Of a stretch of DNA of 64,000 nucleotides, positions 1-18,851 are shown one piece after another; the first letter of the stretch is position 1; every line of letters begins with the position of its first letter. The notes beneath the pieces were generated by a model. It was not told where the DNA came from, did no database searches, and worked only from the letters and a program-made list of their open reading frames with translations. The stretch spans positions 52,167-116,166 of the forward strand of contig CAYSKO010000005.1 in the NCBI GenBank assembly GCA_964431835.1, read 5' to 3'. Position numbers and translations under genes: made by a program. The stretch is from an uncultured Planctomycetia bacterium (GTDB taxonomy: Bacteria > Omnitrophota > Gorgyraeia > 2-02-FULL-51-18).

Positions 1-3000
1 GTACCGAGAAGGCCGGAAATCTCGCGGCCAGCGCGCAGGATGTGTCCCGGGGAGAACCAGCCCTCGGCGAACACGTATTTGTCGTAAACGAGTGTGACGC
101 GCTCGAGGGCCGGCATGGAAAGAACGCTCGTGCGGTACCCGAGGACGGTCAGGCTTTCGAGGCCGGCCTCGTGCAGGCGGCGCTCCAGGAGGTTGAACGC
201 CTGGGTGTCGGGCTCGACGACGTGGAGCGTCTTGACGCGCGGGTTGGCTTTCGCGAAACCCACGATGTCTTCGGCGTTGTCGTAGGGGCCGATGAAAAGA
301 ACTTCGTCTTCCGGCCCGTACCCGTCGGGCCGGATCCCCGCTTTTCGCAAGTAGCGGTTCAGATTCTCGAAATCGAAAGCGTACATCCGGTGTGTCATCG
401 TGAGTGCGTTTCCGGAAGCGCCCGCCGCATACCGTTTATTCGTGCGCGCGATCCGGCCGTCCGTGTCCCACTTCTTGATCAGAACGGCGGGCTGGGAAGG
501 AAAACGCACGACGATCGTCCGGATCCAGCCGGAATCGAGCGTGTGTCTTTGCCGGCGGTCGGGGAAGCCCCCCATCAAGTGGAAGCGGCGAAAGAGGGCT
601 TCTTCGCTCCAATACCAATCGTCTCCGCTCGCTTCGGAGCGTGTGACGCCGAGCACGAGCCCACGGCCGTCGTTTTCGATCGACACGCGGACTTCCCCTT
701 GTGATTCCCGGAGCGAGCGCTCGACAAGAATTCCGAGCGCGCGGCGGAAACGTCCGGGGTGGACGCCGTTCGCCGCGAGGTTTATGGGCGCAAGGAGATC
801 GATTTGGACGCGAGCGGCCTGTCCCGGCGGCAGGGTCGCCAGCGCCTGCTGGATGAGCACGATCCCGTCGCTTTGGCTGCCGTCGTTCGCCATGCGCGCA
901 CCCGACGGCGCCGCGGATTTCGACCCGAACGCGGTGACGAGCGTTGGGAGAACGCCGGTGACGATCCGCAGATCGCCGCCGACGCGAGAGGATAAGCGGC
1001 CGACCAGCGAACGGCCGATCGTCTCGGAAGACCACGGCGACACTGCGCTCTCGTCCATCACGCGGAGAATCTCCTTCATGAGCACCCACTGCCGGGCGCG
1101 CCAGTATTTATCGAGCGTCGCATTCTCCACGCTTTCGAGATAAGCTTCGTGCGACGTCGTTTCCTCCTCCCGGGGCGGCAAAGGGAAATCGAAATCCGGG
1201 TCGTCGACGACGTTCTTGCTCCAGAGAGCGAGCCAATCGGAGAGAATTCTCCGCACGAGCGGCGACTTCCGGCCGTCGGGAAGCGCTTGCGCGAGATAAA
1301 GCAGCGTCCGCATGTTAGCGATGCTGACGTTCAGCTCCGTCCCCTCCGGATAAAGCCGCGCGACGAGCTCGTGGAACCGCGACGCGATCCCCGCGCCTTG
1401 GTGGGGCGGGAAGGTCGTGTAAGAAGGTTCGACGACAAGCCCCCCTTCTTTCATCGAATGGCGAAGGGCGAGCGTGGCCGCGAGCTGATCGCCGGACGAG
1501 CGGAACCAACCGGATTTCCGGTAGACACGGAACCGGGCGTAATGCGGCGCTCCGACGACCGGGTCTGAACGGAGATAGTAGCCGGGGCCGAAAGCGATGC
1601 CGTCCAACGCCTCGCCGACGGGGCGCGCGATATCGAGGGCCGGCGAGTCCGAATCGAGCAGCCGTTCGATGCGCCCCCGGGTGGCAGAGACACCGGTGCG
1701 GTAGAAGAGCCAAGCATTGTAAGTGCGCCGGAGGAATCGCGTGAAAGCCGGGCGGGCGCTCCCTTCCGCGGCCACCCGCGCGCCGGAGGCCCGGACGGGG
1801 TCGGCGGAAGGCGTCCCCTCAGGCGAAGGCGGAAGGTAAATGGTGCGGTAGCGTGCGGGGAGCGGACGGGTCGCGCCCTCGTCGTCAGTGGACGTTTCGA
1901 TCCGCGCCACGGAACGCAGCCGTTCGAGTGCCGGAAATTTTGAGCGCGGATAACGGTTCGTCACGTGAAGCCGCATCGAGTCGGCGAAGCTCGCCGGATC
2001 CAGGGCGTGCTCGTATTCGGGAAGCGCATTCCGGTTGTTCAGCCGGTATAAAAGGGTCGTGATCCCCGTCGAAGGCCCGCTCGACCAACCTTCGATGACG
2101 ACGCCTTCGAGCCCCGTTTGGATAAACAGCTCGCCTCCGCGGCGGAGTTTCTCGTTCTTGATCTGCGCGACGAGCTCGAGTTTATTCTGAACGTAGGGCA
2201 GAACCGAAGTTCCGATCAGGATCACGTCGGCTCTCCCCTTAAAGGGTACACCGAGGTCGAGATCGGCGATCGTCTGGTTCTTTTCGAACCACGCGCGGAA
2301 TTCCGGAGACAACCAGCGTTCGGCCTTGCGGCGGACGTCCGAGGGAAGGGACGCGAGGTATTTTTCACGGTCGATCGAGAGACGTTCCTTGTTCACGAAC
2401 CGCAGTTTCACCCGCGGGCCGTAACGTTCCCGGAGTTCCGCCGCCGACGCCCCGAGGCCGGCGCCGAGGATCCAGACGTCGATTTGCTTGCGGGTTTCGA
2501 GCCGCCTCTGAACTGACCTCTCGACCGCGCCTTGAGTCACGTCGTCCTCCTGGGTGAAATCGCGCGCGACGTTCTGTGTTCCGACGTAAGGATTTCCTTC
2601 GGCCATGCGCGCTCCCGCCGGCCGTTCGAGCACCATCATTTTCCCGCTGACGCGGGTGGGGAGGCCGGTGACGCGCGTCAATTCCTCGGCCGCGGTGCGG
2701 CGGAATTCGTCCTGGGCCTCCGAAAAGAGCTCGCGTAGGCGCCCCAGGGAGTTTTCGACTTCGACGCGAGACGCGTGCGCCGGATCGTCCGGGGAAAGAT
2801 TCAGCGTCTCGAAAACGCTGCCGAAAAATTGAGTGTAGGCGAGCCCCATCCCCAGCGCGGATTCGCCGTCGCGTATTTCGCGGGCCCATCTCAAAAGGCC
2901 CGGGGGCAAGGAACGGTACAAACCGCCGGCCGTCAGATCCTCCTCGAGTTTCTTTAAGGCGGCGGAATTCAAGAGCGCCGTGGCTTCGGCGTACATCGCC

Positions 3001-6000
3001 TCGTAAAGTGCCCCGCTCCGCGTGTTTTGATGGACGATCTGCTCCGCCTGGCGAAGGGCCCGGTTCACCGCCTGCCGCGAGACGAGGTCGTTCACCGCCT
3101 CACCCTTCCAGAGTCCGCCTCCGCGATCCATCCAGGTGACTTCCCCGCCCTCGAACGCCGTGCTGAAGACATAAGCTTCGGGGACGAGACGATCCCCTCG
3201 CTTGCGGAACACCGCGAGTTTTTCCATGTCGGCGCCGCCGGACAACGGCGAGAAACCAGCGACGAGCGCGCCGCCCTCGCGCAAAGCCGCCGCCAGCGCC
3301 TCCCGGTTTTCGGGACCCGGAACGTTGAAGACCCGGACGAGATCCGCCGGAGGAAGCGCCGCCGTACGGTAATCGGCTCGAATGAACGAAACGCCGTTCC
3401 TAGAGAACAGGTTCCACGGGGAGGCGACGACGGGCCAGCGAGAATGAACGGAAGTGGGCAGCCAGCGCCCGAGGAAACGCGTTAAGATCTCGGAAAAGCG
3501 ACCGCGCGCGGTGCCGCGAACCCGTGCGGCGTACACCGACGCCTCGGTGAGGGTCCGCGGGACGACGTCTCCGGCGAGAATCACTCCGGAGGACGTGTCG
3601 AGCGCCACGATGTTCCCGGCGGCGTCGAAGAGGATCGCCTCGACCGTCACCGTGAACGACAGCGGGCCCACGTCCTGGTTCGCCAAGAGACCGCTTCTTT
3701 TGGCGCTCACGACAACGGCAGGCCGCACGATATCGACGCCTTTTACCGTGAAGGCGCCGCGCGGCACGATTTCCGAAATCTTCTTCGCCATCTCGAGTGT
3801 AGTGACGGGCGGATAACCGACGCCGATGTCGTAGATTTGGAGTTTACGGCGTTCGGCGCGGGCGCGGGCGGCGAGAGCCGGCACGATCTCCGAAGCCAGG
3901 AAGTCATCGACGCGCCGCAGACGGCCCGCGAACGTCGTGAAGTTGGAGGAGCCCGCAGGACCAGCCTGCGCGGTCTCCAGTTTCTCGAGGACGATCCCGT
4001 AAGCCGCCGGCTTGTCGCCGTTCGGAAGGACCTCCGCCGAAACCACGCGGAAACCGCGGGAGGCAAAATAGCCGGAAGCTTCGTCGGCCGAAGCGAAGAC
4101 GTTTTCGAGCATCGCCGAGAAGATCGCCGCGTCAAGCCGGGATTTTTTGCGTTCCGTCTCAATGCGCCCGAGCGCGCGCGCCGGATCCGCCGGAAGCGGG
4201 CCGCGGCGTCTTTCCAGAAGCTCCGCGTTCGCCGCGGCGAAATCGCCGCGCTCGACGTGCGCCTTCAGAAGGTCGCAGAAATCCTCGGCGGCCTGGAGAG
4301 CGCCGGCCGCTAGAGTCGCTTCCGCCGTGTAATCGGAATCCGGGTGGTGCAGTGCGAGAACGGCCCGGCCGCCCGGCTTGAGAGCCCGCAGGAGTTCGGC
4401 GGCGGCGGCGTCGCGATCGGCATAATCGTAACTGAAACTGTAGAGGGCTGCGTCGAGCTCCCCGTCCACGAAGCCTGTGCTTTCGGCGGATCCGCGCCGG
4501 AAGTCGATGCGCGAAGGCGGCTCGCCTTCCCTGTCCATTTCGAAGATGTCGACGGCTGTGATGCTCGCGCCGGGGAAACGGCTGGTCATCACGCGGGACA
4601 AGAAAAGATCGGCGCCCGCGCCGATGTCGCCGAGCTTTCGTCCTTCACCGGTGCCCCAGTACGCGCGCAGGCCGTTTTCGATGAAAAGTTCGACGGCCGG
4701 CGGGTAGGTGTCGAACGATCCTTGGCGGTTTTGGCGCAAGTTCTTCTCCCACACATCCACCCAGCGATCCTCAATGTCGTCACTCGAAGCCTCGAACGCC
4801 ATCCGCACACCCGACGCCGGCAGACGCCAGAGCTCCGCGCTCTCCCCGTTTAAGAGGACGGTGACGGGCTCCCAGCCCTTCTTACGGAACGCGAACTCGT
4901 AGTTTTCCCACAGGTTCACGCGGGGGATCTTCGGGTAACGCTTCGCGATGCGCCCGGAGTTCGACGCGTAAAACGATTCGATTCCCGCGGCCCGGAGTTC
5001 CCGGACCATCTCAGCGATCGCGTTTTCGATCCAGGGCCGGAAGACATTGCGGACGGACGTCGGACGCAAGAGACGGTACCCTAGAGAGGGGTGCATTTCG
5101 TCGAAGATCGCGGAGGACCGGCCGTCGATCGTTTCGAATTTCACCTGGATCTGCCCGAACGACCCTCTCGGGCCGATGTCTTCCTGCGAGGATCGTGCGT
5201 CGAGGGCCGCGAGTCCGGTGTAGGCCTTCCGCGTCGCGGCGTCCGGCGTCACGACGTAAACGTCGAACGCGCGGTCGTACTCGATCGTCGCGCCCACGAC
5301 GCCGCCTTTTCCGCTCCATTTGATGGGTTGTGGGGTAGAGAATATTCCCCGCAGACGCTCGGCCGGGGCCTGCCCTCCATACACCATGCGGGCGCCGCTG
5401 GCGGAGGCGACGGCCTTGCGCTCGAGGGCGTGACCCACGTACAGCGGCCGGGCTTCCGCGCGGCCGGCGATTTCGGCCAGCTCGGCGTCCGAGACCGTCC
5501 TCAGATTGGCGTTATTGAACATGGCCTGCTCTTGTCCGGAAAGCGTTTTTTCGAAAAGCGTCCGCGTCGCGGCGTTCATGTGGAAGAGGCTGTCGGAAAG
5601 GTACGCGTTGGGCGCGGCGTCCGGCGGCGCGATGAATCCGTAATCGCGCAAAAGAAGGTCCATCGCGATCAGGTTCCGCATGTCGGGGTGGGTCCGCGTC
5701 ACTTCGGGGTATTCCTCGAAGTAGCGGTTTAAAAGCGCTCGAAAAAGGCCGGCTCCGCGCAGCTGGGTTCCGTCTTCCAGAGCGAACCGGATGAGGAAAC
5801 CGCGCAAGCCGTAAACCGAGTCGCCCGCCGCGTCCGTCATCCCGTCCGAGGCGTACACGGACATCACCGGTTGCAGGCCGTCCGCGTGTTTCGAGACGTT
5901 ATCCCAGACGTCGACGCGCAGCTGGCGCCCGGTCCGGGTCGTGAGCAGCGCGAGCTCTCGCCCGGGCAGTGCTTCCAGGAGGAAAGGCTTCCATCCCTCC

Positions 6001-9000
6001 GCCGACTGACCGAGCGCCATCCGCGCGCCGGTCGCTTGAAGAGCCGCGGGGATCGAACGGTCGGTCGAAATGAAGCGATAGAGAGAGAACTTCTCGAACG
6101 GAGGCAGCGCCGCGTCGTTCTTGTAAAGGCCGAGCAGCGTCTTGAGCGCTTGGGCGGAACGGTCCAGGCGGTACGCGCTCGCTAATTTCCAGTAAACGAG
6201 CCAGCGAGGATTGGTTTTTTCGATGAGTCCGACGAGCGGTTCGAATTCGGAGGGATAAGCCGGCGCCACGATCCCGGCCGCGATTTTTTCCGCCTCGGCC
6301 CATTCGACCGACGGAAGGGAGTCCATCACCCCTTCGGGAGCGCTGTCCAGCCTGCGCCCGGCTCTCCCCTTCTCCGAAAGAAGGATGTCCGTGTATTCCA
6401 ATTCCGTTGGCGCGAAGGTTTCCGTCGGCGCGCTCGAATCGTAGGCGTTGAGTCCCGCCAAAAGCGATTTCATGAGTTCCATCGCGAAGGTTTGATCGAT
6501 GAATTCCGGGCTCGTGACGATCGAAACGATTTTCCCCCGCGCGACGATCGGAACGAGCTGCCGCATCGCACGTTGGACGGCCGCGTCGCGGGCCCATCGG
6601 TCGGCTCTCGGCTCGTCGATGCCGGCGTCCCGATGGCTCTTACGGATCCTCTCGTACAACCCCATGAAGAAGTCGAGATCCACGTCGACGATGTCGATGG
6701 AGGGGGCGGAGAGAACGTCCTCGAGCGGTTTTTTCTCGAGACCGTAATGGAAATGAAAAGGGCTGTCGTCGGGCCGGGCATCCGCATCCCAAATCAGCCG
6801 CTGCGGAAGGACCTGGTCGTCGATCTCCGCCAAATGGAACCACGCCTCGGCGTCGATCAGGCCGGCGGCGACCAACGGCGCGATGAAGTCGTCGATTTCA
6901 TAACCCCGGATCGCTTCGGCGAGTTGGGCCGGATCTTCGACGTCGACCGGCGGGAGAAAGTCGAGATCGACCGGCTTCGCGAAAGCTCGTTTGGAGACCA
7001 GGTCGTCCGGATGCCGGTCCACGTGCAGAAGCGTCGAGTTGTTCCCGATGAGTCCCGTCCGCCTGGCTTCCAACCAAAACGGCAGCGCTTTGTGATGGTG
7101 GTCGCTTAGAAAAATCTGGCGGCCCGCCGACGTCGTGATCTTGAAGCTACGCTTGCCGAAAAGAGCGGAGTCCGTCGCGGCCGTCACTTCCGCGGGAACC
7201 TGAAACGTGCCGAACGGTTCCGCGCCGGCGGCCATCCTCGCACCTCGCTCCCCGCTCACCTCCAGCGCTTCCAGAGCGTCGAAAAGTTCGGAGCGCTTTC
7301 CGTCGAGTTCTTTCAGATCGACGCGCACGAGGCGCGCCACGAGCTTGCCGAGTTCCCGCTCGCCCGCGAAAAAAGAAAGCCGCGCGGTCGCACGGTCCAC
7401 GATACGCTGGTTCGGCGCGTAAAAAAGAGATTTGAACGTTTCGCGGCGCGTCGCGAGCGGTTGGTCCCACGCACGCATCGCATCGGGAGAACCGGCGGCC
7501 GCCGCGAGCGCCCGCTCGAGAGTGGGCCCGAGCTCCACGAGGCTCATCTGGGCGATCGAGACGCCGAGCGCGAAGAGATCCGCGTCGTAAGGGTTAAGCG
7601 GCACCTCTTCGGCGAAGGAGAGAACGGCGCTCGTGGGCATGTAGCCCGGCGTACCGCTGATCCCGTAAACCGATTCCACCCCGAGCTTCGCGCGGCTCAG
7701 CCCGTCCCCTTCGAGCAGGGACACGCCGAAATCGTGCAAAACCGGAGGCCGCGCGTCGATCTCGGCCGGCGTCGGCGCGCGCGGTCCGAAATACGAGGGA
7801 GGAAACCAGAAATTGGAGGGCTTCACGTCGCGGTGGGCCACGCCCCGGGAATGCACGTGGCGGAGCGTGCGCGCGAGCGTCTTAAAAAGATGAACGCGCG
7901 ATTCCGCAGGCCACTGCGCGATGAGACGCGACGCCTCCTCCGCATCGATGGCCTGCCGGGCAAGCGATTCGATCTCCTCCCGGGTACCGAAAGGCTCCAA
8001 AAGAAGCGCGACCGGGGTTGTGCGCGCCCGCAGGGCTGCCGCGAGATCCCGCAGGGCGGCTCGTATCTCCGGCTCGCCGCTCTTGGAAGACAGAAGATCG
8101 TAAACCGAAACGAGCTTCGCCGAAATTTCGCTGAAATCTTCCTGCGCACCGGCCGCTCGGGGCAGATCGCGGCGCGCACCTCCGGGATTCACCGCGTTTA
8201 AGATCGCAGCTTGCGCGACGATTCCGCGCAGGATATGGAGGGGTGGAAAAATTTCTCGAAGTGGCCGGGTTTCGAGCGTCGCGACGTCGGCCTCGTCCAG
8301 AGTGACGCGTCCGACCGAATCCACGGCGTACCATCCTTTCGGCAGGAGAGCAACGGAATCCCCGGCCCAGTACGCGCTCGCGAAGCCGCCGCTCCCAATG
8401 ACGCTCCCCACCAGGAAGTCCGCCATCCGCGCGGCGGATACCACGGGAATCTCGGCGGAGTCCGCGTCGCGCGTTTTCGTCGCGTAGCCGAGAGCGGCGA
8501 GGGCCGCTTTGGATTCGATCGCTGTCGCTCGTCCCGGGAAGCGCGTCGTCTCGACTTGCTTGGCCTGGTCGATCAGCTGGTAAATCCAGTCGAATTCGGC
8601 GGCGGGAAGCTTGCGGGCCGTCTCGAAAGTGCCGCGCGGAAGCATCGAGCCGGCGGCGGCGGGCTTTTTCCGGAGCGGCGCCAGAAGCAGCTCCTCGTAT
8701 TTCGCCTGGTTCGTTTCCGTGGAAACCGCCGGAGTGAGGACCGCGTACGAAAAACCGTCTTCGCGGAGAAGTTTTTTGAGGTGCGGCGTGTGGTAGCCGC
8801 CGGTGATCAGAATCGCGACGCTTTCCTTCTCCGCGGCGAGCGCCTTCGACGTATTCCGAACGAACGCAAAATCGCGTTCCCGCACCGAATCGTAAAAGGC
8901 TTCGAGCGGCGTCTTCGCCTTCTCGAGCGCGTCGCGGTACGGCACGAGATCCTCGAACGCGCCCGCTTCCGCGAGAAGACGGTTCACAAAAGCAAGGTAG

Positions 9001-10229
9001 GACGCGGTCGCGAAATCGGTCTCGTTCGCGCGGAACGCTTCGAACTCCTCCGCGCTCATGCGGATGCGAAACGCCGTGTCGAGAAGCGCGACGTAGCGGT
9101 CGATCGCGCGGAGTTTCCGCGGCGCGTCGCCGGCGAGAAGTTTCGCGTAGCAGGCCTCGCGCGCCGCCGCCGCGTCCTTCAGCACCGCGTCGAGATCGAT
9201 TTCAGAGAATGCGCGGAGATAATCCACGTATTTCGAGAGCGCCGGATAATCCTCGAGACGGATTCCCTTCTCTCGCGCGATAACAAAAGTGTTTCGGAAG
9301 TGAGGATAACGCGAGAGCGCGGCGCCCTTGGCGTTCCCCATCCGTTCGAGCGAAGCCCGGAGTTCCGAACCCCCGCCGCGGCGCGCGATTTCTTCCGCGA
9401 GAGCCCCCTGCTCGAGATTGGCACGCTCGAAGTCGATCTCCTTTTCCGTCGCTTCGAGCGCGCCTAGGCGAGCGAGCGACGGATACCCAGAGGCATCGAT
9501 ACCGGCGTACGCCAGAAGTTCCAACGCCGCCCTAAAATCGGCTTCCCCTCCGGCCGCGGCCGCGCGAGCCTCGAACGCCAGAAGTTCCCGCGGATAGAGA
9601 CGGCGCTTCATTTTCTCAATGGCCGTGCGCACGCGCGATAGGTATTCGAGCGCGTCCGTGCGGACCGCCGCGAGGTCCGCGTAGCTCGAGACGCTCTTGA
9701 AATAGAGAGCTTTGTCCTCGACGCCGACGATCTTCATCGGCTTATCCGAGATGAGATTGAGGTATTCCTCGCCGGAGATTTTTCCCTCGACGAGGAAACT
9801 CTTGGCCACGCGCTTCCAGGTTTCCGGCGACGCGATCGACTTGATCGGGGTGAGCGTCGCGTCGCGCGAGCCGCCTTCGACGAGCACGAGCCGCACGTCG
9901 TATTTCTCCATGATCGCGTCGAGTGCCCAGGCTAGATTCTCCTGGCCGCTCAGATTTGAATGGGCGTCCTGAATATGGATGACGAAGGGGCCTGTGCCGC
10001 GATGAACTTCCCGCAAGGAAGCGAATGGAAGGGGCGGCTCGAAACGCGAAGGGTCCGAAGCGAGCGAAACCGCCGAAGGGGCGGGAGAAGACAGCGGGGC
10101 GGCCTGCGCGACTTCCGCCGCCAGAAAAGAAGCGACGAGAACGCAAGCGACCGTGCGCAGTCCGAGACGGCGCCGGTCCCCGCGTAACCAAAATTTATAT
10201 AAAGCGAGCAATGCGAGTGCGTTGGGCAT
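1..10229 (-). CDS. Giant multidomain protein, 5' end (ATG 10229) complete and 3' end beyond window start. At least 3409 aa lie in the window. It carries a signal peptide, a TraB/GumN/Tiki-like domain, a Hanks-type kinase core, arginase/deacetylase-like motifs, at least three SAM-methyltransferase-like modules and an FkbM-like module.
   Basis: Manual reverse-complement translation from ATG 10229 (MPNALALLALYKFWLRGDRRRLGLRTVACVLVASFLAAEVAQAAP...) found no in-frame stop down to nt 1. Codon third positions are strongly G/C-biased, like the verified nuo genes. No minus-strand ORF in the supplied track shares this frame (start coordinate congruent to 2 mod 3) anywhere in 1-10270, as expected for a frame with no stop inside the window. 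Motifs were checked directly against the forward sequence, e.g. HRDVKPSNFWF is the reverse complement of 7803-7835 and VLHDFGVS of about 7730-7753. Confidence 0.8.
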   Translation of the reverse strand, partial: MPNALALLALYKFWLRGDRRRLGLRTVACVLVASFLAAEVAQAAPLSSPAPSAVSLASDPSRFEPPLPFASLREVHRGTGPFVIHIQDAHSNLSGQENLAWALDAIMEKYDVRLVLVEGGSRDATLTPIKSIASPETWKRVAKSFLVEGKISGEEYLNLISDKPMKIVGVEDKALYFKSVSSYADLAAVRTDALEYLSRVRTAIEKMKRRLYPRELLAFEARAAAAGGEADFRAALELLAYAGIDASGYPSLARLGALEATEKEIDFERANLEQGALAEEIARRGGGSELRASLERMGNAKGAALSRYPHFRNTFVIAREKGIRLEDYPALSKYVDYLRAFSEIDLDAVLKDAAAAREACYAKLLAGDAPRKLRAIDRYVALLDTAFRIRMSAEEFEAFRANETDFATASYLAFVNRLLAEAGAFEDLVPYRDALEKAKTPLEAFYDSVRERDFAFVRNTSKALAAEKESVAILITGGYHTPHLKKLLREDGFSYAVLTPAVSTETNQAKYEELLLAPLRKKPAAAGSMLPRGTFETARKLPAAEFDWIYQLIDQAKQVETTRFPGRATAIESKAALAALGYATKTRDADSAEIPVVSAARMADFLVGSVIGSGGFASAYWAGDSVALLPKGWYAVDSVGRVTLDEADVATLETRPLREIFPPLHILRGIVAQAAILNAVNPGGARRDLPRAAGAQEDFSEISAKLVSVYDLLSSKSGEPEIRAALRDLAAALRARTTPVALLLEPFGTREEIESLARQAIDAEEASRLIAQWPAESRVHLFKTLARTLRHVHSRGVAHRDVKPSNFWFPPSYFGPRAPTPAEIDARPPVLHDFGVSLLEGDGLSRAKLGVESVYGISGTPGYMPTSAVLSFAEEVPLNPYDADLFALGVSIAQMSLVELGPTLERALAAAAGSPDAMRAWDQPLATRRETFKSLFYAPNQRIVDRATARLSFFAGERELGKLVARLVRVDLKELDGKRSELFDALEALEVSGERGARMAAGAEPFGTFQVPAEVTAATDSALFGKRSFKITTSAGRQIFLSDHHHKALPFWLEARRTGLIGNNSTLLHVDRHPDDLVSKRAFAKPVDLDFLPPVDVEDPAQLAEAIRGYEIDDFIAPLVAAGLIDAEAWFHLAEIDDQVLPQRLIWDADARPDDSPFHFHYGLEKKPLEDVLSAPSIDIVDVDLDFFMGLYERIRKSHRDAGIDEPRADRWARDAAVQRAMRQLVPIVARGKIVSIVTSPEFIDQTFAMELMKSLLAGLNAYDSSAPTETFAPTELEYTDILLSEKGRAGRRLDSAPEGVMDSLPSVEWAEAEKIAAGIVAPAYPSEFEPLVGLIEKTNPRWLVYWKLASAYRLDRSAQALKTLLGLYKNDAALPPFEKFSLYRFISTDRSIPAALQATGARMALGQSAEGWKPFLLEALPGRELALLTTRTGRQLRVDVWDNVSKHADGLQPVMSVYASDGMTDAAGDSVYGLRGFLIRFALEDGTQLRGAGLFRALLNRYFEEYPEVTRTHPDMRNLIAMDLLLRDYGFIAPPDAAPNAYLSDSLFHMNAATRTLFEKTLSGQEQAMFNNANLRTVSDAELAEIAGRAEARPLYVGHALERKAVASASGARMVYGGQAPAERLRGIFSTPQPIKWSGKGGVVGATIEYDRAFDVYVVTPDAATRKAYTGLAALDARSSQEDIGPRGSFGQIQVKFETIDGRSSAIFDEMHPSLGYRLLRPTSVRNVFRPWIENAIAEMVRELRAAGIESFYASNSGRIAKRYPKIPRVNLWENYEFAFRKKGWEPVTVLLNGESAELWRLPASGVRMAFEASSDDIEDRWVDVWEKNLRQNRQGSFDTYPPAVELFIENGLRAYWGTGEGRKLGDIGAGADLFLSRVMTSRFPGASITAVDIFEMDREGEPPSRIDFRRGSAESTGFVDGELDAALYSFSYDYADRDAAAAELLRALKPGGRAVLALHHPDSDYTAEATLAAGALQAAEDFCDLLKAHVERGDFAAANAELLERRRGPLPADPARALGRIETERKKSRLDAAIFSAMLENVFASADEASGYFASRGFRVVSAEVLPNGDKPAAYGIVLEKLETAQAGPAGSSNFTTFAGRLRRVDDFLASEIVPALAARARAERRKLQIYDIGVGYPPVTTLEMAKKISEIVPRGAFTVKGVDIVRPAVVVSAKRSGLLANQDVGPLSFTVTVEAILFDAAGNIVALDTSSGVILAGDVVPRTLTEASVYAARVRGTARGRFSEILTRFLGRWLPTSVHSRWPVVASPWNLFSRNGVSFIRADYRTAALPPADLVRVFNVPGPENREALAAALREGGALVAGFSPLSGGADMEKLAVFRKRGDRLVPEAYVFSTAFEGGEVTWMDRGGGLWKGEAVNDLVSRQAVNRALRQAEQIVHQNTRSGALYEAMYAEATALLNSAALKKLEEDLTAGGLYRSLPPGLLRWAREIRDGESALGMGLAYTQFFGSVFETLNLSPDDPAHASRVEVENSLGRLRELFSEAQDEFRRTAAEELTRVTGLPTRVSGKMMVLERPAGARMAEGNPYVGTQNVARDFTQEDDVTQGAVERSVQRRLETRKQIDVWILGAGLGASAAELRERYGPRVKLRFVNKERLSIDREKYLASLPSDVRRKAERWLSPEFRAWFEKNQTIADLDLGVPFKGRADVILIGTSVLPYVQNKLELVAQIKNEKLRRGGELFIQTGLEGVVIEGWSSGPSTGITTLLYRLNNRNALPEYEHALDPASFADSMRLHVTNRYPRSKFPALERLRSVARIETSTDDEGATRPLPARYRTIYLPPSPEGTPSADPVRASGARVAAEGSARPAFTRFLRRTYNAWLFYRTGVSATRGRIERLLDSDSPALDIARPVGEALDGIAFGPGYYLRSDPVVGAPHYARFRVYRKSGWFRSSGDQLAATLALRHSMKEGGLVVEPSYTTFPPHQGAGIASRFHELVARLYPEGTELNVSIANMRTLLYLAQALPDGRKSPLVRRILSDWLALWSKNVVDDPDFDFPLPPREEETTSHEAYLESVENATLDKYWRARQWVLMKEILRVMDESAVSPWSSETIGRSLVGRLSSRVGGDLRIVTGVLPTLVTAFGSKSAAPSGARMANDGSQSDGIVLIQQALATLPPGQAARVQIDLLAPINLAANGVHPGRFRRALGILVERSLRESQGEVRVSIENDGRGLVLGVTRSEASGDDWYWSEEALFRRFHLMGGFPDRRQRHTLDSGWIRTIVVRFPSQPAVLIKKWDTDGRIARTNKRYAAGASGNALTMTHRMYAFDFENLNRYLRKAGIRPDGYGPEDEVLFIGPYDNAEDIVGFAKANPRVKTLHVVEPDTQAFNLLERRLHEAGLESLTVLGYRTSVLSMPALERVTLVYDKYVFAEGWFSPGHILRAGREISGLLG
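100..300 (-). other. FkbM-family-like methyltransferase motif region of the giant protein, cut by the window edge
   Basis: LFIGPYDNAEDIVGFAKANPRVKTLHVVEPDTQAFNLLERRL resembles the FkbM/Methyltransf_21 v-A-F-E-P-x-P-x-x-F-x-x-L signature. Confidence 0.3.
2070..2520 (-). other. SAM-methyltransferase-like Rossmann module 3 of the giant protein
   Basis: DVWILGAGLGASAAEL (GxGxG), ADVILIGTSVL, LRRGGELFIQTG. Confidence 0.4.
3200..3840 (-). other. SAM-methyltransferase-like Rossmann module 2 of the giant protein
   Basis: QIYDIGVGYPP (motif I-like), ADLVRVFNV, LREGGALVAGFSP (motif III-like). Confidence 0.4.
4320..4710 (-). other. Class I SAM-dependent methyltransferase-like Rossmann module 1 of the giant protein
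   Basis: Motif I LGDIGAGADLF, post-I ITAVDIFE, motif II LDAALYSFSYDYA, motif III LKPGGRAVLALHHP. Confidence 0.55.
6480..7140 (-). other. Arginase/deacetylase (ureohydrolase)-fold-like metal-binding motif region of the giant protein
   Basis: Ordered motifs FLSDHHH, LLHVDRHPDD (DxHxD) and IDIVDVDLDFF (DxDxxD) resemble the three Mn-ligand motifs of arginase/agmatinase/UPF0489-like proteins. Pattern only. Confidence 0.3.
7500..8430 (-). other. Hanks-type Ser/Thr protein kinase-like catalytic domain inside the giant protein
   Basis: Gly-rich loop VIGSGGFASAY, candidate VAIK-equivalent Lys (ALLPK), catalytic loop HRDVKPSN (H at 7835), DFG (LHDFGVS) and activation-segment GTPGYMP appear in canonical order. 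About 188 residues separate the G-loop from HRD, which implies an insert of roughly 60 aa. Confidence 0.65.
8730..10050 (-). other. TraB/GumN/Tiki-like domain of the giant protein
   Basis: N-terminal FVIHIQDAHSN...VRLVLVEGG and C-terminal SVAILITGGYHTPHLKKLLREDGFSYAVL resemble the TraB/GumN family motif (v-G-A-G-H-l ... LL-R-x-x-G-Y-x-V). Confidence 0.4.
10092..10229 (-). other. Predicted N-terminal Sec signal peptide or signal-anchor of the giant protein (positively charged RGDRRRLGLR, hydrophobic TVACVLVASFLAA, AQA-AP cleavage-like site)
   Basis: n/h/c-region organisation read from the translation; no tool run. Confidence 0.45.
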
Positions 10230-10409
10230 TGGGTTAGGGCAAGTATACCCGCCGTCCGGCTCAAATTCAAAATAGAGACGATCCATAAAACTATATTATA
10301 AAAAGACTTATAAAAATCTTATTCTACGCTGACTCACTTTTGACTGGAAACGCTTAAAACAGGCCGTTTCCTCTATATACAGGGGCCTCCAGTGCTTTTT
10401 CCGATTCCT

Positions 10410-10438
10410 TTGACTTGGTTTTTCGTTTTCTGTACAAT
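10410..10438 (+). promoter_or_regulatory. sigma70-type promoter of the nuo-mrp cluster: -35 TTGACT (10410-10415), 17-nt spacer, -10 TACAAT (10433-10438)
   Basis: Near-consensus hexamers with optimal spacing lie 34 nt upstream of the nuoA ATG, in an AT-rich divergent region. Confidence 0.6.
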
Positions 10439-10471
10439 GGCTCCCATAAACCGTTCGGAGCACTTTTTTTC

Positions 10472-10837
10472 ATGACTTTATTAAACGATTATTCTTACGT
10501 CTTCGGATTTCTCGTCATCGGCGTCGGGTTCGTGGTCGTCAACACCCTCCTGCCCCTCCTGATCAGTCCGCGAAGCCGCGGTTCCCGCGCGAACGACCCG
10601 TACGAAAGCGGCGAAGTCCCGATCGGCGGCGCGTGGGTACAGTTCGACGTCAATTACTACCTCTTCGCATTGATCTTCATCGCCTTCGACGTCGAAGCCG
10701 CATTCCTTTTCCCGGTTCTTGCGGTGTACCGCGAGGTTCCGGGCTGGGGCGCGTTCGTCGAGGTCGCCGTTTTCCTCTTCATCCTGTCGTTCGCGATCCT
10801 CTACGCTTGGAAAAAAGGACTCTTCTCCTGGAAGTGA
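10472..10837 (+). CDS. nuoA: NADH-quinone oxidoreductase subunit A
   Basis: MTLLNDYSYVFGFLVIG...; the track ORF 10415 starts at a TTG inside the promoter, so ATG 10472 is preferred. Confidence 0.9.
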   Translation: MTLLNDYSYVFGFLVIGVGFVVVNTLLPLLISPRSRGSRANDPYESGEVPIGGAWVQFDVNYYLFALIFIAFDVEAAFLFPVLAVYREVPGWGAFVEVAVFLFILSFAILYAWKKGLFSWK

Positions 10838-10840
10838 TGC

Positions 10841-11509
10841 ATGGCCGATCCGATTAAAGAACCCCAGCTGTATAAAAACCCCGCTTACCTGCAGACCCAG
10901 TCGCCTGCGCCAGGAATCGTGAACCTTTTCCACGTCGAGGACGTGCTGAACATGGCCCGCGCCAATTCGCTTTGGCCGCTCACGTTCGGCCTCGCCTGCT
11001 GCGCCATCGAGATGATGGCCGGCGGCGCCGCGCGTTACGATCTCGACCGCTTCGGCTTCGGCGTGTTCCGTCCTTCGCCGCGCCAAGCGGACGTGATGAT
11101 CGTCTCGGGTACGATCTCGCGCAAGATGGTTCCCTGCATCAAAACGCTCTACGACCAGATGCCGTCTCCGAAATACGTGATCGCGATGGGCGGCTGCGCC
11201 ACCGCGGGTGGCCCGTTCAAATTCCCGGGCCAGTACGGCATTCTCGAGGGCATCGACAAGATCATTCCCGTGAACGTCTACATTCCCGGCTGCCCGCCGC
11301 GCCCCGAAGCGCTGATCGCCGGCATCCTCGAGCTTCAAAAGCAAATCAAAGCGGGCAACGTGCAAGGCGTGATGTCGCCGGCGGCCGTCAACGACTCTCA
11401 GGACGCGCGCCCCGCCGAATACAAAAACGCGGTCTCCCGCGCCGATTTCCGCAAACCCGCCGCTCCGGCCGCTCCCGCGGCTCCTGCGTCGGCGGAGCCG
11501 AAAGCCTAA
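10841..11509 (+). CDS. nuoB: NADH-quinone oxidoreductase subunit B (20 kDa, N2 cluster) with Ala/Pro-rich C-terminal tail
   Basis: [28 protein letters not shown] Cys motifs. Confidence 0.95.
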
Positions 11510-11512
11510 AAC

Positions 11513-13144
11513 GTGTCCCCCGTCGCTGAAAAAGACATGAAAGCCTGGCTCGTCTCGTCGGTGAAGCCCGACGAGTTCGCGGAAAAAGATCCGAAGTCGG
11601 GCGTTCTCTTCGAAGCTCTCGTCGGCCGCGAGCATATCCGGGAAGTCGCACGCGAATTCCGCACGCAGGGGTGGTTTCTCGAGTCGATTTCCATCGTCGA
11701 CTTCGCCGAATGCTTCGAGATCGTCTACCATTTCAACAAATGGGGCGTTGCCCGCCGAGCCTGCGTAAAGACGCTCGCCCTGAAGGCGGAAGGCGAAGCG
11801 GCGTCCGCTCCCTCGATCTCGGACGTCTTCCGCGCCGCCAACTGGCACGAGCGCGAGGCGTACGACATGTTCGGTCTCGTCTTCGAAGGCCACCCGAACC
11901 TGAAGCGCCTCCTTCTTCCCGAAACTTCGAAGATCCACCCGCTACGCAAGAGCTTCAAGGGCGAACCCAAGGGCTCCGACGTCGAGGACTCCCTGCGGCT
12001 CATCCAAGAAGACACCGAGGGCTTCGAGGTGCGCTACCCGAGCCAGCTCACGAAGAGCCAGAAGGATTACTACCTGAATCTCGGCCCTCAGCATCCGAGC
12101 ACGCACGGCGTCCTTCGCGTCCTTCTCCATTTAGACGGCGAGCGCGTGCTAGACGGCGAGCCGGTACTCGGCTACTCGCACCGCAACCAGGAAAAGATGT
12201 TCGAGATCCAGAATTACCTCGCCTGCTGGCCGCAGTTCGGCCGCCTCGATTACGTCGGCGCGATGGCGTTCAATTTCGGCTACGCCCACCTGATCGAAAA
12301 GGCGATGGGCATTGAAGCGACGCCCCGCGCCCAAGCGATCCGCGTCCTGGCGACGGAGCTAAACCGCATCTCCTCCCATCTCCTCTGGATGGGCACGTTC
12401 CTCCTCGATCTCGGGGCGTTCACGCCGTTCTTCTACTGCTTCGACGACCGCGAAAAGATCATCGACATCCTCGAGATGGCCACCGGCGAGCGCCTCACCT
12501 ACGACTACTTCCGTTTCGGCGGGCTCGATCACGACATCCCTGAGGAGATGCTCCCCGCCGTGAAGGCGTTCGTCCCCGAATTCAAGAAACGACTCAAGGA
12601 TTACCACAAGCTCGTCACGAAGAATCCAATCTTCATCTCGCGCACGCGGGGCCTCGGCGTCCTCACGAAGGACCAGGCCCTGAATTACGGCGTGAGCGGT
12701 CCCTGCTTGCGCGCCTCGGGCGTCCGCCAGGATCTTCGCCGCGACGAGCCCTATTCTATTTATCCCACGCTCGATTTTGACGTTCCTACCATGACGGACG
12801 GCGACGTCTGGTCGCGTTACACAATCCGTATGCGCGAGATGGAGGAGAGCCTGAAGATCGTCTCCCAGCTGGTGGAAAAAATCCCGGCCGGAGACGTCAC
12901 GCTCGGCAAGTTGCCGAAGAACGTGCCGAAGGGCGAATATTATTCCGCGGTCGAATCGGCGCGCGGCGCATTCGGCATCTATCTCGTCAGCGACGGCACG
13001 CTCAATCCCTACCGCATGAAACTGCGTACGCCCTCGTTCTGCAATTTGAGCGCGTTCAGCGAGATGATCCCCGGCTGCCTCCTCTCCGACGTGATCGCGA
13101 TCCTGGGCTCCATCGACATCGTTCTCCCGGAGATCGACCGGTGA
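11513..13144 (+). CDS. nuoCD: Fused NADH-quinone oxidoreductase subunits C and D
   Basis: NuoC motif [29 protein letters not shown], then Nuo[13 protein letters not shown]...RTPSF in one 543-aa frame. GTG start at 11513, alternative ATG at 11537. Confidence 0.9.
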
Positions 13145-14124
13145 CCGGAAACCCCGTCCTCGACGAGCTTCTGAAAATCGTCCTCTGGGGAACGCTCGTG
13201 ATCCTTTTCGTGTCCGTGAACGCGCTTTTCCTCGTCTGGGCCGAGCGCAAAATCTCGGCGCGCATCCAGCTACGCCAGGGCCCGCTTCACGTCGGCTTCC
13301 AGGGGACGCTGCAGACCGTGGCCGACGCGATCAAGCTCATCTCGAAGGAATTGACGCTTCCCAAATCCTCGGCCAAGAGCCTCTACATGCTCGCTCCGGT
13401 GCTCGTCTTCGCCCCGTCGATCGCGGCGTTTCTCGTGCTTCCGTTCTCGCCGGAAATGCCGATGCGCGATCTCAACATCGGCTTCCTCCTCATCTTCTCG
13501 CTCACGAACGTCACTTTCATCGGCGTCTTCCTCGCCGGCTGGGCCTCGAACTCCAAATACGCGCTCCTGGGCTCCATGCGCGCCATCGCGCAGAACATCT
13601 CTTACGAAATTCCCCTCCTTCTTTCCACGATGGGCGTCGTCCTCTGCGCGGGGACCCTCCAGATGTCCGGAATCGTCCGGGCCCAGGAGCACGGCTGGTT
13701 CCTTTTTAATGGCCAGGTGATCGCGTTCGTCGTCTTCATCGTCTCGGCACTCGCCGAGGCCAACCGTGCGCCATTCGACATTCCCGAGGCCGAATCCGAG
13801 CTCGTCGCCGGTTTCCACACCGAGTACTCGGGCATGCGGTTCGCGCTTTTTTTCCTCGGCGAGTACACGGCCGTCTTCATCTCATCCGCCGTGGCCGTGA
13901 CGCTTTTTCTCGGCGGCTGGAGCGGCCCGCTCCTTCCTCCGCCCGTCTGGTTCCTCCTTAAGACCTATTTGATCGTTTTCGTGGTGATGTGGATCCGGTG
14001 GACGTTTCCCCGCCTGCGCTCGGATCAGCTCATGGCGCTGGCCTGGAAGGTGCTGATTCCGTTCGCTCTCCTCAACATCCTTTTGACGGCGCTTTTTATC
14101 CAGCTGCAAAGGAGCCTCGCATGA
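13141..14124 (+). CDS. nuoH: NADH-quinone oxidoreductase subunit H
   Basis: GTG start overlapping the nuoCD stop (GTGA); typical NuoH TM sequence. Confidence 0.9.
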
Positions 14125-18850: not shown

Positions 18851-18851
18851 C

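Follow-up and report, generated by a model that had tools for sequence, protein, structure and literature searches.

The locus raises the question of what a protein kinase is doing inside a very large protein that begins with a signal-like segment: whether it is a working kinase, and whether it acts within the cell that makes it or beyond. The window, by which we mean the whole stretch of 64,000 nucleotides that was analysed, comes from an uncultured Omnitrophota bacterium. Members of this phylum are ubiquitous, uncultured and ultra-small, and are thought to be predators or parasites. An earlier note on this DNA had described canonical kinase motifs, an enlarged N-lobe and a possible export of the protein. 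Taken as a whole, the data are best explained by a divergent Hanks-type Ser/Thr kinase module within an exported, junction-processed multi-enzyme protein, a reading to which we assign a probability of about one half.

Gene and genomic context

The giant gene lies on the minus strand, as do all of its features described below, and coordinates are window positions throughout. Its reading frame is open from 10295 to 3 and runs past the window start; residues (aa) are numbered from the first open codon, at 10295. The open frame and its match to P0152 (0 mismatches across 3,428 aa) place the N-terminal 3,428 of 4,873 codons at 1..10286, with ATG 10286 or ATG 10229 as candidate start codons and the C-terminal 1,445 codons past the window start. 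The complete gene, of 14,622 nt, is present on four independent assemblies. Between 5000 and 10300, open frames of 80 aa or longer in other frames or on other strands were rejected as high-GC shadows of the giant gene, and Rfam and tRNA scans of the window returned no matches.

The gene is flanked by two nuo operons, and the named relatives of the neighbouring NuoCD are Omnitrophica (69-76% identity). A response-regulator receiver gene lies directly downstream. No secretion-system or peptidase genes were found next to the giant gene, and no T1SS genes within 10 kb of it; the position between nuo operons, with the receiver gene downstream, would fit a cytoplasmic signalling role.

Modular architecture and the junction motif

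The protein contains about 14-15 unrelated enzyme cassettes, among them two kinases and SAM methyltransferases; the first is kinase module 1 (aa 624-1020; 7236..8426), recognised by Pfam, profile search and an AF2 model. Module 2 spans 7235-6021 and includes a UPF0489 / FlmR-OhkR peptide-arginase-like domain (6828..7115; PF12640, E 7e-11); the NCBIfam peptide arginase model matches it at E 6e-5, under its cut-off. A SAM-dependent methyltransferase (Methyltransf_11) lies in module 5 (4359..4628; PF08241, E 1e-8). NCBIfam scans of the modules matched the kinase, the methyltransferase and, weakly, the peptide arginase, with no other significant match.

Module boundaries in the giant protein carry the peptide G-[AV]-R-[MV]-A. 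By motif reading, junctions 1 to 8 are A-A-R-M-A where the head gives way to the kinase module (8421..8435), G-A-R-M-A between the kinase and UPF0489 modules (7230..7244), GARMA (6015..6029), GARMV (5382..5396), GVRMA (4797..4811), GARMA (2601..2615), GARVA with GTG as its fourth codon (1770..1784) and GARMA (888..902); six further junctions follow past the window start, together with a second kinase module. GARM occurs 11 times in this protein, against 0.07 expected. Conservation at the junctions extends over five or six residues only, with otherwise unrelated flanks; the junctions fall in low-pLDDT stretches of the models, and all Pfam domains checked (8/8) lie inside single inter-motif intervals. 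Comparison of the modules with each other by blastp recovered no internal repeats, and the junction motif is therefore not part of a repeated domain.

The same organisation recurs in a family of more than 1,600 cluster representatives of 1-7 kaa, which have in common a conserved Sec-type N-terminus, a head of ~500 aa and variable enzyme modules with the junction motif. This modular setting, with its head, junction peptide and second kinase module, had escaped the earlier note. The family search returned 7,546 matches (1,613 at E<=1e-30), almost all to the head only. Most of the family's 183 genomic loci bear an Omnitrophota or Omnitrophica label, with numerous paralogs in each MAG, and the cassette types include kinases, peptide arginase, methyltransferases, RelA/SpoT, LOG-like and HATPase domains, among others. 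The protein also has a conserved C-terminal tail, which recurs in just three other giants and one genomic ORF, and so does not define the family; a scan of genome contigs that took the last 297 aa of the window ORF as query gave no match.

Family-wide, the junction motif is G-[AST]-R-[LMV]-[AST] (logo [SA]-G-A-R-[LM]-[AST]), with 600 occurrences against 18.4 expected from shuffles, a 33-fold excess; the window's other ORFs contain two in 29.6 kaa. Chance or composition was accordingly rejected as the source of the motif. The first junction falls at a median of aa 617, just past the head, and the median spacing is 298 aa. Homologous modules in other giants bear the motif at the same edges in a local flavour (GARL vs GARM), which tends to be common within a protein and within a MAG.

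N-terminal segment and topology

A Sec-type signal sequence or signal anchor is predicted at 10101..10229 by Kyte-Doolittle analysis and a rule-based check. It comprises a positively charged n-region (KFWLRGDRRRLGLR), a 13-residue h-region (TVACVLVASFLAA; aa 48-60, 10154-10116) and, directly after, the c-region EVAQA|AP, reading in full RGDRRRLGLR / TVACVLVASFLAA / EV-A-Q-A|AP; the rule-based check found a positive n-region, an h-region within 7-15 residues and small residues at -3/-1. The Kyte-Doolittle maximum of the protein (1.82) lies here, and this is the sole TM-like segment in 4,873 aa, bearing out the N-terminal hydrophobic segment reported earlier. An 'A-x-A-A-P'-like motif past an h-region of ~15 residues was present in 43 of the 61 homologs examined, whose median n-region charge is +3. 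Since the flanks of the hydrophobic segment carry charges of ~+5 (N-terminal) and ~-1 (C-terminal), the bulk of the giant protein is predicted to lie outside, whether the signal is cleaved or the anchor remains. With these charges, the fallback that the earlier note had allowed, in which the domain stays in the cytoplasm and the anchor is not cleaved, becomes unlikely, and the note's suggestion of an exported or effector-like role for the kinase-bearing protein is a reasonable reading, consistent with a single predicted N-in hydrophobic segment.

A rather unlikely but substantial alternative would keep the protein with its producer, as an uncleaved, membrane-tethered multi-enzyme protein whose kinase serves the cell's own signalling or metabolism, for example with the downstream receiver, and whose junctions are linkers, docking motifs or pause sites. 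It draws on the use of cytoplasmic cofactors by the modules, on the receiver-domain gene that follows and the lack of secretion genes nearby, and on CGG, usually a rare codon, whose enrichment at the junctions (94 vs 32 expected) could reflect pausing between domains. A 2026 preprint puts 46% of long Omnitrophota proteins in a TM-only class and reads their bulk as cytoplasmic (10.64898/2026.06.07.730766). However, the only hydrophobic segment here is N-terminal and short (13-15 aa), with a charge of ~+5 ahead of it and a conserved AxA-AP behind, as is characteristic of cleavable Sec signals and N-in anchors alike, and in both cases the bulk would lie outside; and a five-residue motif at 600 boundaries with unrelated flanks is more specific than a passive linker needs.

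A separate consideration concerns cofactors: the enzymes of the modules depend on ATP or SAM, neither of which is present outside the cell, and this speaks against export.

A divergent Hanks-type kinase

All of the kinase peptides quoted in the earlier note (IGSGGFASAY, HRDVKPSN, DFG and GTPGYMP) were found on the minus strand, and the Hanks-type kinase is genuine in its fold. PF00069 matches the isolated module at E = 2e-8 (34.4 bits; gathering cut-off 31.7) and scores 29.5 bits against the same cut-off in a whole-protein scan. The match exceeds chance, and the alignment to the kinase HMM covers profile positions 97-191 only, so that the N-lobe goes unrecognised by Pfam. A profile built from related modules matches PknB, PknA, PKR and CaMKII chains in the PDB at E ~1e-23, and the AF2 model has the bilobal protein-kinase fold, with an ePK-fold catalytic domain at ~aa 625-925 followed by a ~95-aa tail of pLDDT <50 up to the next junction. 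The same divergent type, with a Gly-loop, long helical N-lobe inserts, HRDxKPxN, DFG and GTPxY, also occurs in kinase module 2 of this protein (k2) and in P0003 (twice), P0005, P0007, P0041, P0072 and P0089.

The motifs were placed with the model and with A2, an alignment of related kinase modules from giant proteins at 20-28% identity, in which the G, R, D, K, N, D and D columns are invariant. The Gly-rich loop IGSGGFASAY (aa 633-642; 8370..8399) connects beta1 and beta2 (strands at module residues 8-11 and 15-20 in the model), and its G10, G12 and G13 are invariant or nearly so. The catalytic loop HRDVKPSN (aa 821-828; 7812..7835), also aligned to PDB kinases, is of the Ser/Thr-kinase type H-R-D-x-K-x-x-N, with R198, D199, K201 and N204 invariant. 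DFG (aa 855-857; 7725..7733) supplies the Mg-binding Asp855 (D231, invariant), the P+1 loop GTPGYMP (aa 881-887; 7635..7655) was read from the sequence and A2, and alphaF Asp906 (7578..7580; D282, invariant) lies in the DxxxxG motif 'DADLFALG'.

The claim of correct motif spacing proved too generous: the HRD and DFG aspartates are 32 residues apart, compared with 18 in PKA, and the Gly-loop and HRD 188, compared with ~114. The enlargement of the N-lobe is real (~70 aa in excess); it is not the single insert of about 60 aa proposed before but two N-lobe inserts, accompanied by a 14-residue insert relative to PKA between the catalytic loop and DFG (FWFPPSYFGPRAPTPAEIDARPP). The first N-lobe insert (aa 654-678) lies between beta3 and alphaC, and the second (aa 717-760; 8016..8147; placed by DSSP of the model and A2) consists of two helices between the 'NPGG...DLP' beta4 region and beta5. 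DSSP assigns helices to module residues 98-112, 117-133 and 55-78, the last being the predicted alphaC (aa 679-702), and strands to 32-34 and 39-42.

The description of the kinase as canonical does not hold. The beta3 strand S-V-A-L-L-P-K (aa 647-653; 8337..8357) was located by profile alignment to PKR (3uiu) and by A2, and in the former Leu650 occupies the column of PKR K296, the beta3 Lys; the closest Lys to this VAIK column is Lys653, three residues downstream, after Pro652. In alphaC the only glutamate is E57, at the N-terminal end of the helix, and A2, of low confidence in this region, has no conserved acidic column. The APE Glu is missing as well (YMPTS), although kinase module 2 has it (GTPGYYPE). 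Taken by columns, the check for the VAIK Lys and alphaC Glu leans towards an atypical kinase or a pseudokinase. Loss of both residues kills activity in most kinases. The PKR chain aligned here is K296R, itself a dead mutant.

Across the paralogous modules the beta3 column is K, R, L or M, with K in P0003b and R in k2, P0005 and P0007. Kinase module 1, P0041 and P0089 have an 'x-x-P-K' arrangement in common: in all three modules that lack K/R at the column, a Lys stands after the following Pro (3/3). This hints that the charge may be retained by the displaced Lys, on a sample of n = 3 against 5. Searched by word index for homologs, the kinase module on its own returned one weak match, and the module profile found only ordinary kinases of <700 aa and no giants, so the sample was not enlarged.

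The module could be a pseudokinase or scaffold that has kept the fold without phosphotransfer, as a binding, regulatory or nucleotide-sensing domain of the giant protein. Leu at the VAIK-Lys column, an alphaC without a conserved acidic residue, the missing APE Glu, an N-lobe that Pfam does not recognise and a beta3 column that varies among paralogs all point in this direction. Yet at 20-28% identity the modules show no variation in the Gly-loop, the alphaF Asp, the DFG Asp or, in the catalytic loop, the HRD Asp, Lys and Asn, which would be unexpected after loss of catalysis; a Lys lies three residues downstream in exactly the modules that lack the canonical K/R (n = 3 against 5, suggestive only); and WNK kinases offer a precedent in which a relocated Lys can work. 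On balance we consider a pseudokinase improbable, at odds comparable to those of the tethered protein. Independently of this weighing, Leu in place of the beta3 Lys, the lack of a conserved alphaC Glu and the Arg at that column in paralogous modules are observations that count against kinase activity.

A small-molecule, lipid or sugar kinase of the wider superfamily (APH, Kdo/WaaP, CotH-like) is very improbable: the atypical N-lobe and weak Pfam matches over the catalytic loop (Kdo E 0.005, APH E 0.12) are outweighed by the higher score of Pkinase, by best sequence and fold neighbours that are all protein kinases, and by H-R-D-x-K-P-x-N and a G-T-P-x-Y P+1 loop, which are protein Ser/Thr-kinase signatures (Hanks motifs).

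The head domain and possible processing at the junctions

Between the signal-like segment and the first junction lies the conserved head (8670..10079), delimited by its fold and invariant residues. It has ~500 aa, with an alpha/beta core of the fold common to the Tiki/TraB/ChaN/erythromycin-esterase superfamily and a helical insert of ~300 aa. Its invariant residues are H107, Q109, D110 and H112 (9977-9960), E140 (9878-9876) and G-G-Y-H502-T (8801-8787). The His and Glu residues among them (H107, H112, E140, H502) come after beta1, beta2 and the last strand, an arrangement (His following beta1 and the C-terminal strand, Glu following beta2) that we take to match the catalytic layout of the superfamily. 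The Pfam models of the superfamily match the head in 1-4 of 16 members at E 0.01-0.03, far under threshold; a head profile found nothing significant among PDB sequences, and an NCBIfam scan of the head gave no match. The hydrolase-like head is the prime candidate for a processing enzyme acting on the junctions.

The closest structural neighbour of the head is ChaN, a heme-binding protein and no enzyme; this and the sub-threshold superfamily matches speak against an enzymatic head.

The junctions are also biased at the codon level (GGC GCG CGG C/TTG), so that a purely peptide-level signal is an incomplete explanation for them. The fourth codon of the 14 junctions in the giant gene is ATG in 13 cases and GTG in one, and NTG is enriched at this position family-wide (CTG+TTG 116 vs 74 expected). 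This pattern would be expected if the junctions were internal translation starts, or relics of once-separate genes now fused, giving many proteins without proteolysis. We find this highly improbable, and internal starts or Shine-Dalgarno sites were rejected as a general explanation: CTT, CTC, CTA and TTA, which cannot initiate, make up 34% of the Leu codons found there, no consistent Shine-Dalgarno lies upstream and the conserved GG abuts the fourth codon, and no stop codons separate the modules in four independent assemblies.

Two kinds of proteolytic site were also compared with the motif. Ntn-type autoproteolysis (G|S/T/C) was rejected, the residue following Gly being mostly Ala; a C39 double-glycine site (G-[AST]|) is conceivable, but the giant protein has no C39 domain. 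The junction peptide may mark cut sites of the giant proteins. Among the 93 members of the family with 2,000 aa or more, 10 lack the motif, which, like the codon bias, is an observation against processing.

Proposed mechanism

The exported, junction-processed protein would be threaded out of the cytoplasm in an N-in/C-out orientation. Its junction peptides would serve as processing or recognition sites, with the hydrolase-like head as the prime candidate for the processing enzyme, and the modules would then act as separate enzymes. The kinase module would phosphorylate Ser/Thr residues of a protein substrate where ATP is available, be it in the cell of a host or prey or, ahead of export, in the producer; catalysis would proceed through the intact catalytic loop, its Asn and DFG, with the displaced K653 in place of the missing beta3 Lys. 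A more specific version, which we put forward tentatively and regard as possible but doubtful, is that these proteins form an undescribed family of exported 'effector polyproteins', with a Sec signal, a Tiki-like head as protease, interchangeable cassettes freed at lineage-specific junction peptides and a kinase that acts as a host- or prey-directed effector.

Implications

By itself the kinase is of modest novelty, being a Hanks-type fold that lacks the canonical Lys/Glu pair and follows a signal-like segment. Three testable handles came from following it up: the head, which over 1,600 sequence clusters carry and neither Pfam nor NCBIfam contains; the five-residue junction peptide, which provides a rule for splitting giant proteins into domains for structure prediction and proteomics; and the cassette catalogue, which has the look of protein- and nucleotide-modifying effectors. 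In the published accounts, the giant genes of Omnitrophota are a recognised puzzle, in which it has been asked whether the products are cleaved and the cleavage points have so far been missing. Processing at the junctions, if true, would represent a new way for bacteria to package and deliver enzyme arsenals. If the effector-polyprotein reading held, it would supply those cleavage points and a bacterial counterpart, of independent origin, to MARTX toxins and viral polyproteins.

Comparison with known systems

Among known kinases, the module most resembles the bacterial Hanks-type Ser/Thr kinases PknB, PknA and StkP (best profile matches, E ~1e-21 to 1e-23), with which it shares the bilobal ePK fold, Gly-loop, HRDxKPxN, DFG, GTPxY P+1 loop and alphaF Asp. 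It differs from them in lacking the canonical beta3 Lys and alphaC Glu, in ~70 extra N-lobe residues (two inserts) and 14 more before DFG, and in architecture, being one cassette of a multi-enzyme protein of 4,873 aa that starts with a signal sequence, with no transmembrane/PASTA arrangement. Like WNK, it has a hydrophobic residue for the canonical beta3 Lys and keeps a nearby Lys and the C-lobe catalytic residues; however, the substitute Lys of WNK is in the Gly-loop (beta2), whereas the candidate here, proposed from sequence, is on beta3, three residues downstream and after a Pro, and there is no homology beyond the fold. The head, in turn, has its fold in common with the Tiki/TraB-PrgY/GumN/ChaN/erythromycin-esterase superfamily, without a significant sequence match, and is set apart by its helical insert of ~300 aa and by its fusion in front of giant modular proteins.

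Within the same phylum, published work describes Omnitrophota giant proteins ('Archaeovorins' and other multi-enzyme long proteins, West-Roberts et al. 2023; 2026 preprint; Seymour et al. 2023) whose N-terminus is likewise linked to the membrane or to a signal and which combine methyltransferase, HATPase_c, LOG/lysine-decarboxylase-like and other enzyme domains in a mosaic, with suspected post-translational cleavage and a peptidase-type domain near the N-terminus. Those proteins are, in the same sources, at least 10-30 kaa long, carry C39 or S8 peptidases and have many TM helices, whereas members of the family described here have 1-7 kaa, one hydrophobic segment, at the N-terminus, and a Tiki/ChaN-like head. 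As given there, 'Archaeovorins' have at least 30 kaa, many TM helices, glycosyl transferase/hydrolase and NUDIX domains and a C39 peptidase; the giant protein has 4,873 aa, one hydrophobic segment and none of those domains. Term searches of the full texts of the two giant-protein preprints (2023, 2026) found no mention of a junction motif, cleavage points or an ePK module, and that of the 2023 preprint none of a TraB/ChaN-type head; nor did the literature searched yield an account of the junction motif or the head of this family.

A parallel in overall design may be drawn with the MARTX toxins, also very large secreted proteins with conserved ends, a variable array of unrelated enzymes and short linkers. 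A Pfam scan of the giant protein, taken at 4,854 aa, found no RTX or glycine-rich repeats and no cysteine protease domain. MARTX linkers are cut to release effectors, after Leu and by an InsP6-activated CPD, whereas in the giant protein cleavage is hypothesised and the motif is G-x-R-[LM]-A. As drawn here, the relation to MARTX toxins is one of functional analogy, not of membership.

Kinase module 1

All peptides from which an earlier note had proposed a kinase are found in the frame of the giant gene (window 8399-7635, within the noted 7500-8430, minus strand): IGSGGFASAY at aa 633-642, HRDVKPSN at aa 821-828, DFG at aa 855-857, and GTPGYMP at aa 881-887, counted from the first open codon. 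The claimed distance of 188 residues from the Gly-rich loop to HRD is reproduced, as is the order of HRD, DFG, and GTPGYMP; their spacing, which had been called correct, is not typical, with 32 residues between the HRD and DFG aspartates as compared with 18 in PKA. H-R-D-x-K-P-x-N and G-T-P-x-Y are signatures of Ser/Thr protein kinases (Hanks motifs). The proposed alignment to a kinase HMM gave a divided result: the isolated module scored 34.4 bits against Pfam Pkinase (E = 2e-8; cut-off 31.7), with the alignment limited to profile positions 97-191, but only 29.5 bits in a whole-protein scan. Single-sequence searches matched PDB kinases only weakly, at E about 1e-4, with the matches grouped around the catalytic loop.

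Related modules from other giants (long proteins with the same head) and one ordinary kinase were aligned with module 1 (alignment A2). The designation "canonical" does not survive this comparison, as the beta3 Lys is absent, alphaC is without a conserved acid, and the APE Glu is missing, the sequence reading YMPTS. In a profile alignment to PKR, K296 (Arg in that structure) pairs with Leu650 of S-V-A-L-L-P-K, so that Leu occupies the column of the VAIK-equivalent Lys, whose loss the earlier note had named as the mark of a pseudokinase. The only Lys near this column is K653, which comes after Pro652. The predicted alphaC (module residues 55-78) has a sole acidic residue, E57, at the helix start, and no conserved acidic column was found in alphaC among the related modules. 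Because the VAIK-Lys test failed, and with only E57 available in alphaC, where the alignment is of low confidence, we treat the module as a variant rather than a canonical Hanks member.

The predicted structure has a mean pLDDT of 70, with values of 80-95 for residues 1-250 and below 50 for the last ~95 residues. The N-lobe is enlarged, as had been claimed, but not by a single insert of ~60 aa; the alignment and the model resolve two N-lobe inserts and one before DFG. The first, a beta-hairpin and helix, lies between beta3 and alphaC; the second, two helices, separates beta5 from a conserved "NPxG...LP" stretch that corresponds to the "HPNIV" beta4 region; the third adds fourteen residues between the catalytic loop and DFG. 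The module folds as a Hanks-type kinase and is predicted to work like one.

A second kinase module lies beyond the window start (residues 3718-4115 of the 4,854-aa protein version P0002, 3737-4134 of the 4,873-aa version P0152, and nucleotides 21149-22342 of L081, the locus covering the gene there). Its motifs (HRDLKPEN, DFG, GTPGYYPE) are closer to canonical than those of module 1, its N-lobe is of the same style, and the Pkinase score of the whole protein (E 4e-18, 66 bits, two stretches) comes mostly from it. Across eight modules compared in total, the beta3 column holds Lys in P0003b and P0030, Arg in kinase module 2, P0005, and P0007, and a hydrophobic residue in module 1, P0041, and P0089; all three of the last group carry a Lys just past the next Pro. 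This small sample of sequences is suggestive of a relocated beta3 Lys in modules with a hydrophobic column. The same divergent kinase type occurs in about a dozen of 150 giants.

Gene, locus, and taxonomic distribution

A six-frame scan of the window found the minus-strand frame open from 10295 to 3 (3,431 codons); a list of the window's ORFs had no entry for the kinase range, as the actual gene extends past the window start. A search for exact copies of the neighbouring NuoB led to a JGI metagenome contig that carries the locus and a gene call of 4,854 aa, and this protein (P0002) was recovered by exhaustive HMMER search. A cluster look-up returned P0152 (4,873 aa), identical to the window translation at all 3,428 comparable residues. 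The complete ORF of 14,622 nt is present on four independent assemblies; its start codon is ATG 10286 or ATG 10229, with AT-rich sequence upstream. In other frames and on the plus strand, window 5000-10300 also contains many ORFs of 80-485 aa that overlap the gene (e.g., 8211-9467, plus, 418 aa, and 7461-8201, plus, 246 aa), with translations rich in Arg, Gly, and Pro; these look like high-GC shadows rather than genes.

Two separate nuo (complex I) operons flank the giant gene (window 10415-20273, plus strand, and L081 25109-33894). The operon within the window encodes a fused NuoCD, and the named homologs nearest to this protein, at 69-76% identity, belong to Candidatus Omnitrophica/Omnitrophota MAGs. 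By depositors' labels, the best 80 of 183 confirmed head-encoding loci are mostly from Omnitrophota or Omnitrophica, the remainder being TPA bins labelled "uncultured Planctomycetia" and one "Eisenbacteria" bin. Single MAGs contain up to eight or nine giant paralogs.

Topology, head, and other modules

The N-terminal hydrophobic segment described earlier is present and is the sole one in the whole protein (Kyte-Doolittle 1.82; the next peak, 1.56, is inside module 5 at P0002 aa 2192-2210). Its layout, RGDRRRLGLR / TVACVLVASFLAA / EVAQA-AP, comprises a positively charged n-region, an h-region of 13 residues, and Ala residues three and one positions before the putative cleavage point. Of 61 homologs examined, 43 share this layout, "A-x-A-A-P" included, and the median charge of the n-region is +3. 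The positive-inside rule would leave the N-terminus cytoplasmic and have the ~4,800 residues behind it translocated, whether or not the segment is cleaved.

An exhaustive search with aa 4-1200 returned 7,546 matches, 1,613 of them at E<=1e-30, in proteins 1,000-7,364 aa long. Because almost all matches cover only query positions ~40-545, the N-terminal ~500 aa represent the conserved head of a very large family (window 10079-8670, minus strand; >1,600 Omnitrophota protein clusters). An alignment of 16 sequences with 35-54% identity to the window protein (A1) shows H107-x-Q109-D110-x-H112-x-N, E140-G, and G-G-Y-H502-T to be invariant. No significant sequence-level match to the head was found in Pfam, NCBIfam, or PDB; sub-threshold Pfam matches (E 0.01-0.03) were to DUF5694, ChaN "Tiki superfamily", and TraB_PrgY_gumN. 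By predicted fold, the head belongs to the Tiki/TraB/ChaN/erythromycin-esterase (EreA) superfamily. Its invariant His and Glu residues come after the first, second, and last core strands, which are presumably also the positions of the superfamily's catalytic residues.

The module beside the kinase (window 7235-6021, minus strand) carries a UPF0489 domain, weakly related in NCBIfam to the FlmR/OhkR peptide arginases, which convert Arg to Orn in peptides. From this weak relation, several cassettes may have proteins or peptides as their substrates. The cassette repertoire of two homologous giants, P0048 and P0055, is reminiscent of toxin/effector and nucleotide-signalling enzymes. The C-terminal tail (388 aa; L081 23456-24619, P0152 aa 4486-4873) has homologs at the very C-terminal end of the giants P0004, P0005, and P0112 and of an ORF at locus L061, and is always terminal.

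A recurrent junction motif

The peptide G-A-R-M-A recurs in the giant between stretches without mutual similarity. The full protein has 14 junction sites, with 11 copies of GARM versus 0.07 expected from composition. Those in the window, on the minus strand, lie at 8435-8421, 7244-7230, 6029-6015, 5396-5382, 4811-4797, 2615-2601, 1784-1770, and 902-888; they read G-[AV]-R-[MV]-[AV], the first A-A-R-M-A, and occur at every module boundary. When tetrapeptides are ranked by over-representation, a lineage-specific flavour of this motif comes first in nearly all homologs (GARM, GARL, GTRL, GSRV, or GSRL; 5-22 copies versus <0.7 expected). In a set of 150 proteins totalling 407 kaa, the pattern G-[AST]-R-[LMV]-[AST] matches 600 sites versus 18.4 in shuffles (33-fold); the median spacing is 298 aa, and the first site, with a median position of aa 617, follows closely on the head. 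The window's remaining ORFs gave 2 matches in 29.6 kaa, and 10 of 93 long family members are without the motif.

A logo of 233 sites shows conservation of [SA]-G-A-R-[LM]-[AST] alone, and in both structural models the junctions sit in low-pLDDT stretches. All eight placeable Pfam domains fit inside one inter-motif interval each: two kinases, UPF0489, and a methyltransferase in this giant; HATPase_c, histidine phosphatase, and RelA/SpoT in P0048; and a LOG/lysine-decarboxylase-like domain in P0055. Where modules of this giant have homologs in other giants, the corresponding edge there bears the motif in its local flavour (4/6 N-edges, 3/4 C-edges), and flavour tends to agree within one protein and within one MAG. 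Codon choice at the junctions (loci L002-L080 and the window sites) is biased beyond the peptide constraint toward GGC GCG CGG (C/T/A)TG, with per-ORF weighted counts, observed/expected, of GGC 117/62, GCG 103/62, CGG 94/32, and CTG+TTG 116/74; the window gene uses exclusively ATG or GTG as the fourth codon.

Proposed function and comparison with known systems

We give roughly even odds (about 0.5) to a divergent Ser/Thr kinase cassette within an exported modular protein, in which the junction peptides would be processing or recognition sites and the hydrolase-like head a candidate processing enzyme. The kinase would then act where ATP exists, inside host or prey cells, in keeping with the predatory or parasitic lifestyle proposed for Omnitrophota (PMC10066038). 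Published work supports this reading indirectly. A preprint on giant genes reports C39 or S8 peptidase domains at the N-termini of other Omnitrophota giants, close to the signal peptides, and suspects cleavage, stating that the cleavage points are unknown (10.1101/2023.11.21.568195). A 2026 preprint reports that methyltransferase, HATPase, GNAT, and HAD co-occur in long proteins, 94% of which have membrane or signal features; the words "motif", "cleav", and "linker" appear nowhere in its text (10.64898/2026.06.07.730766).

A pseudokinase, a distinctly less likely reading, has to be weighed because the Lys/Glu pair is missing from module 1; the Gly-loop glycines, catalytic-loop R-D-x-K-x-x-N, DFG Asp, and alphaF Asp are invariant in A2. 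Similarly doubtful is an uncleaved, producer-associated multi-enzyme protein serving the cell's own signalling, an alternative raised by the cofactor needs of the modules, the absence of secretion genes nearby, and the 133-aa response-regulator receiver gene directly downstream (L081 24701-25102). That the junctions are internal translation starts is improbable, since 34% of the fourth-position Leu codons are unable to initiate and no Shine-Dalgarno sequence was found ahead of the junction codons. A small-molecule kinase is slightly more improbable still; the Pkinase profile outscores Kdo and APH on module 1.

Neither the head family nor the junction motif was found described in the papers searched, which were those available without subscription. 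In its logic, the exported modular protein proposed here resembles the MARTX toxins: in both, the ends are conserved, the array of effectors varies, and short linkers separate one effector from the next. It has none of the defining MARTX parts. Phylum and module types make it a small relative of Omnitrophota giants already described, from which it differs in size, in its one hydrophobic segment, and in its head.
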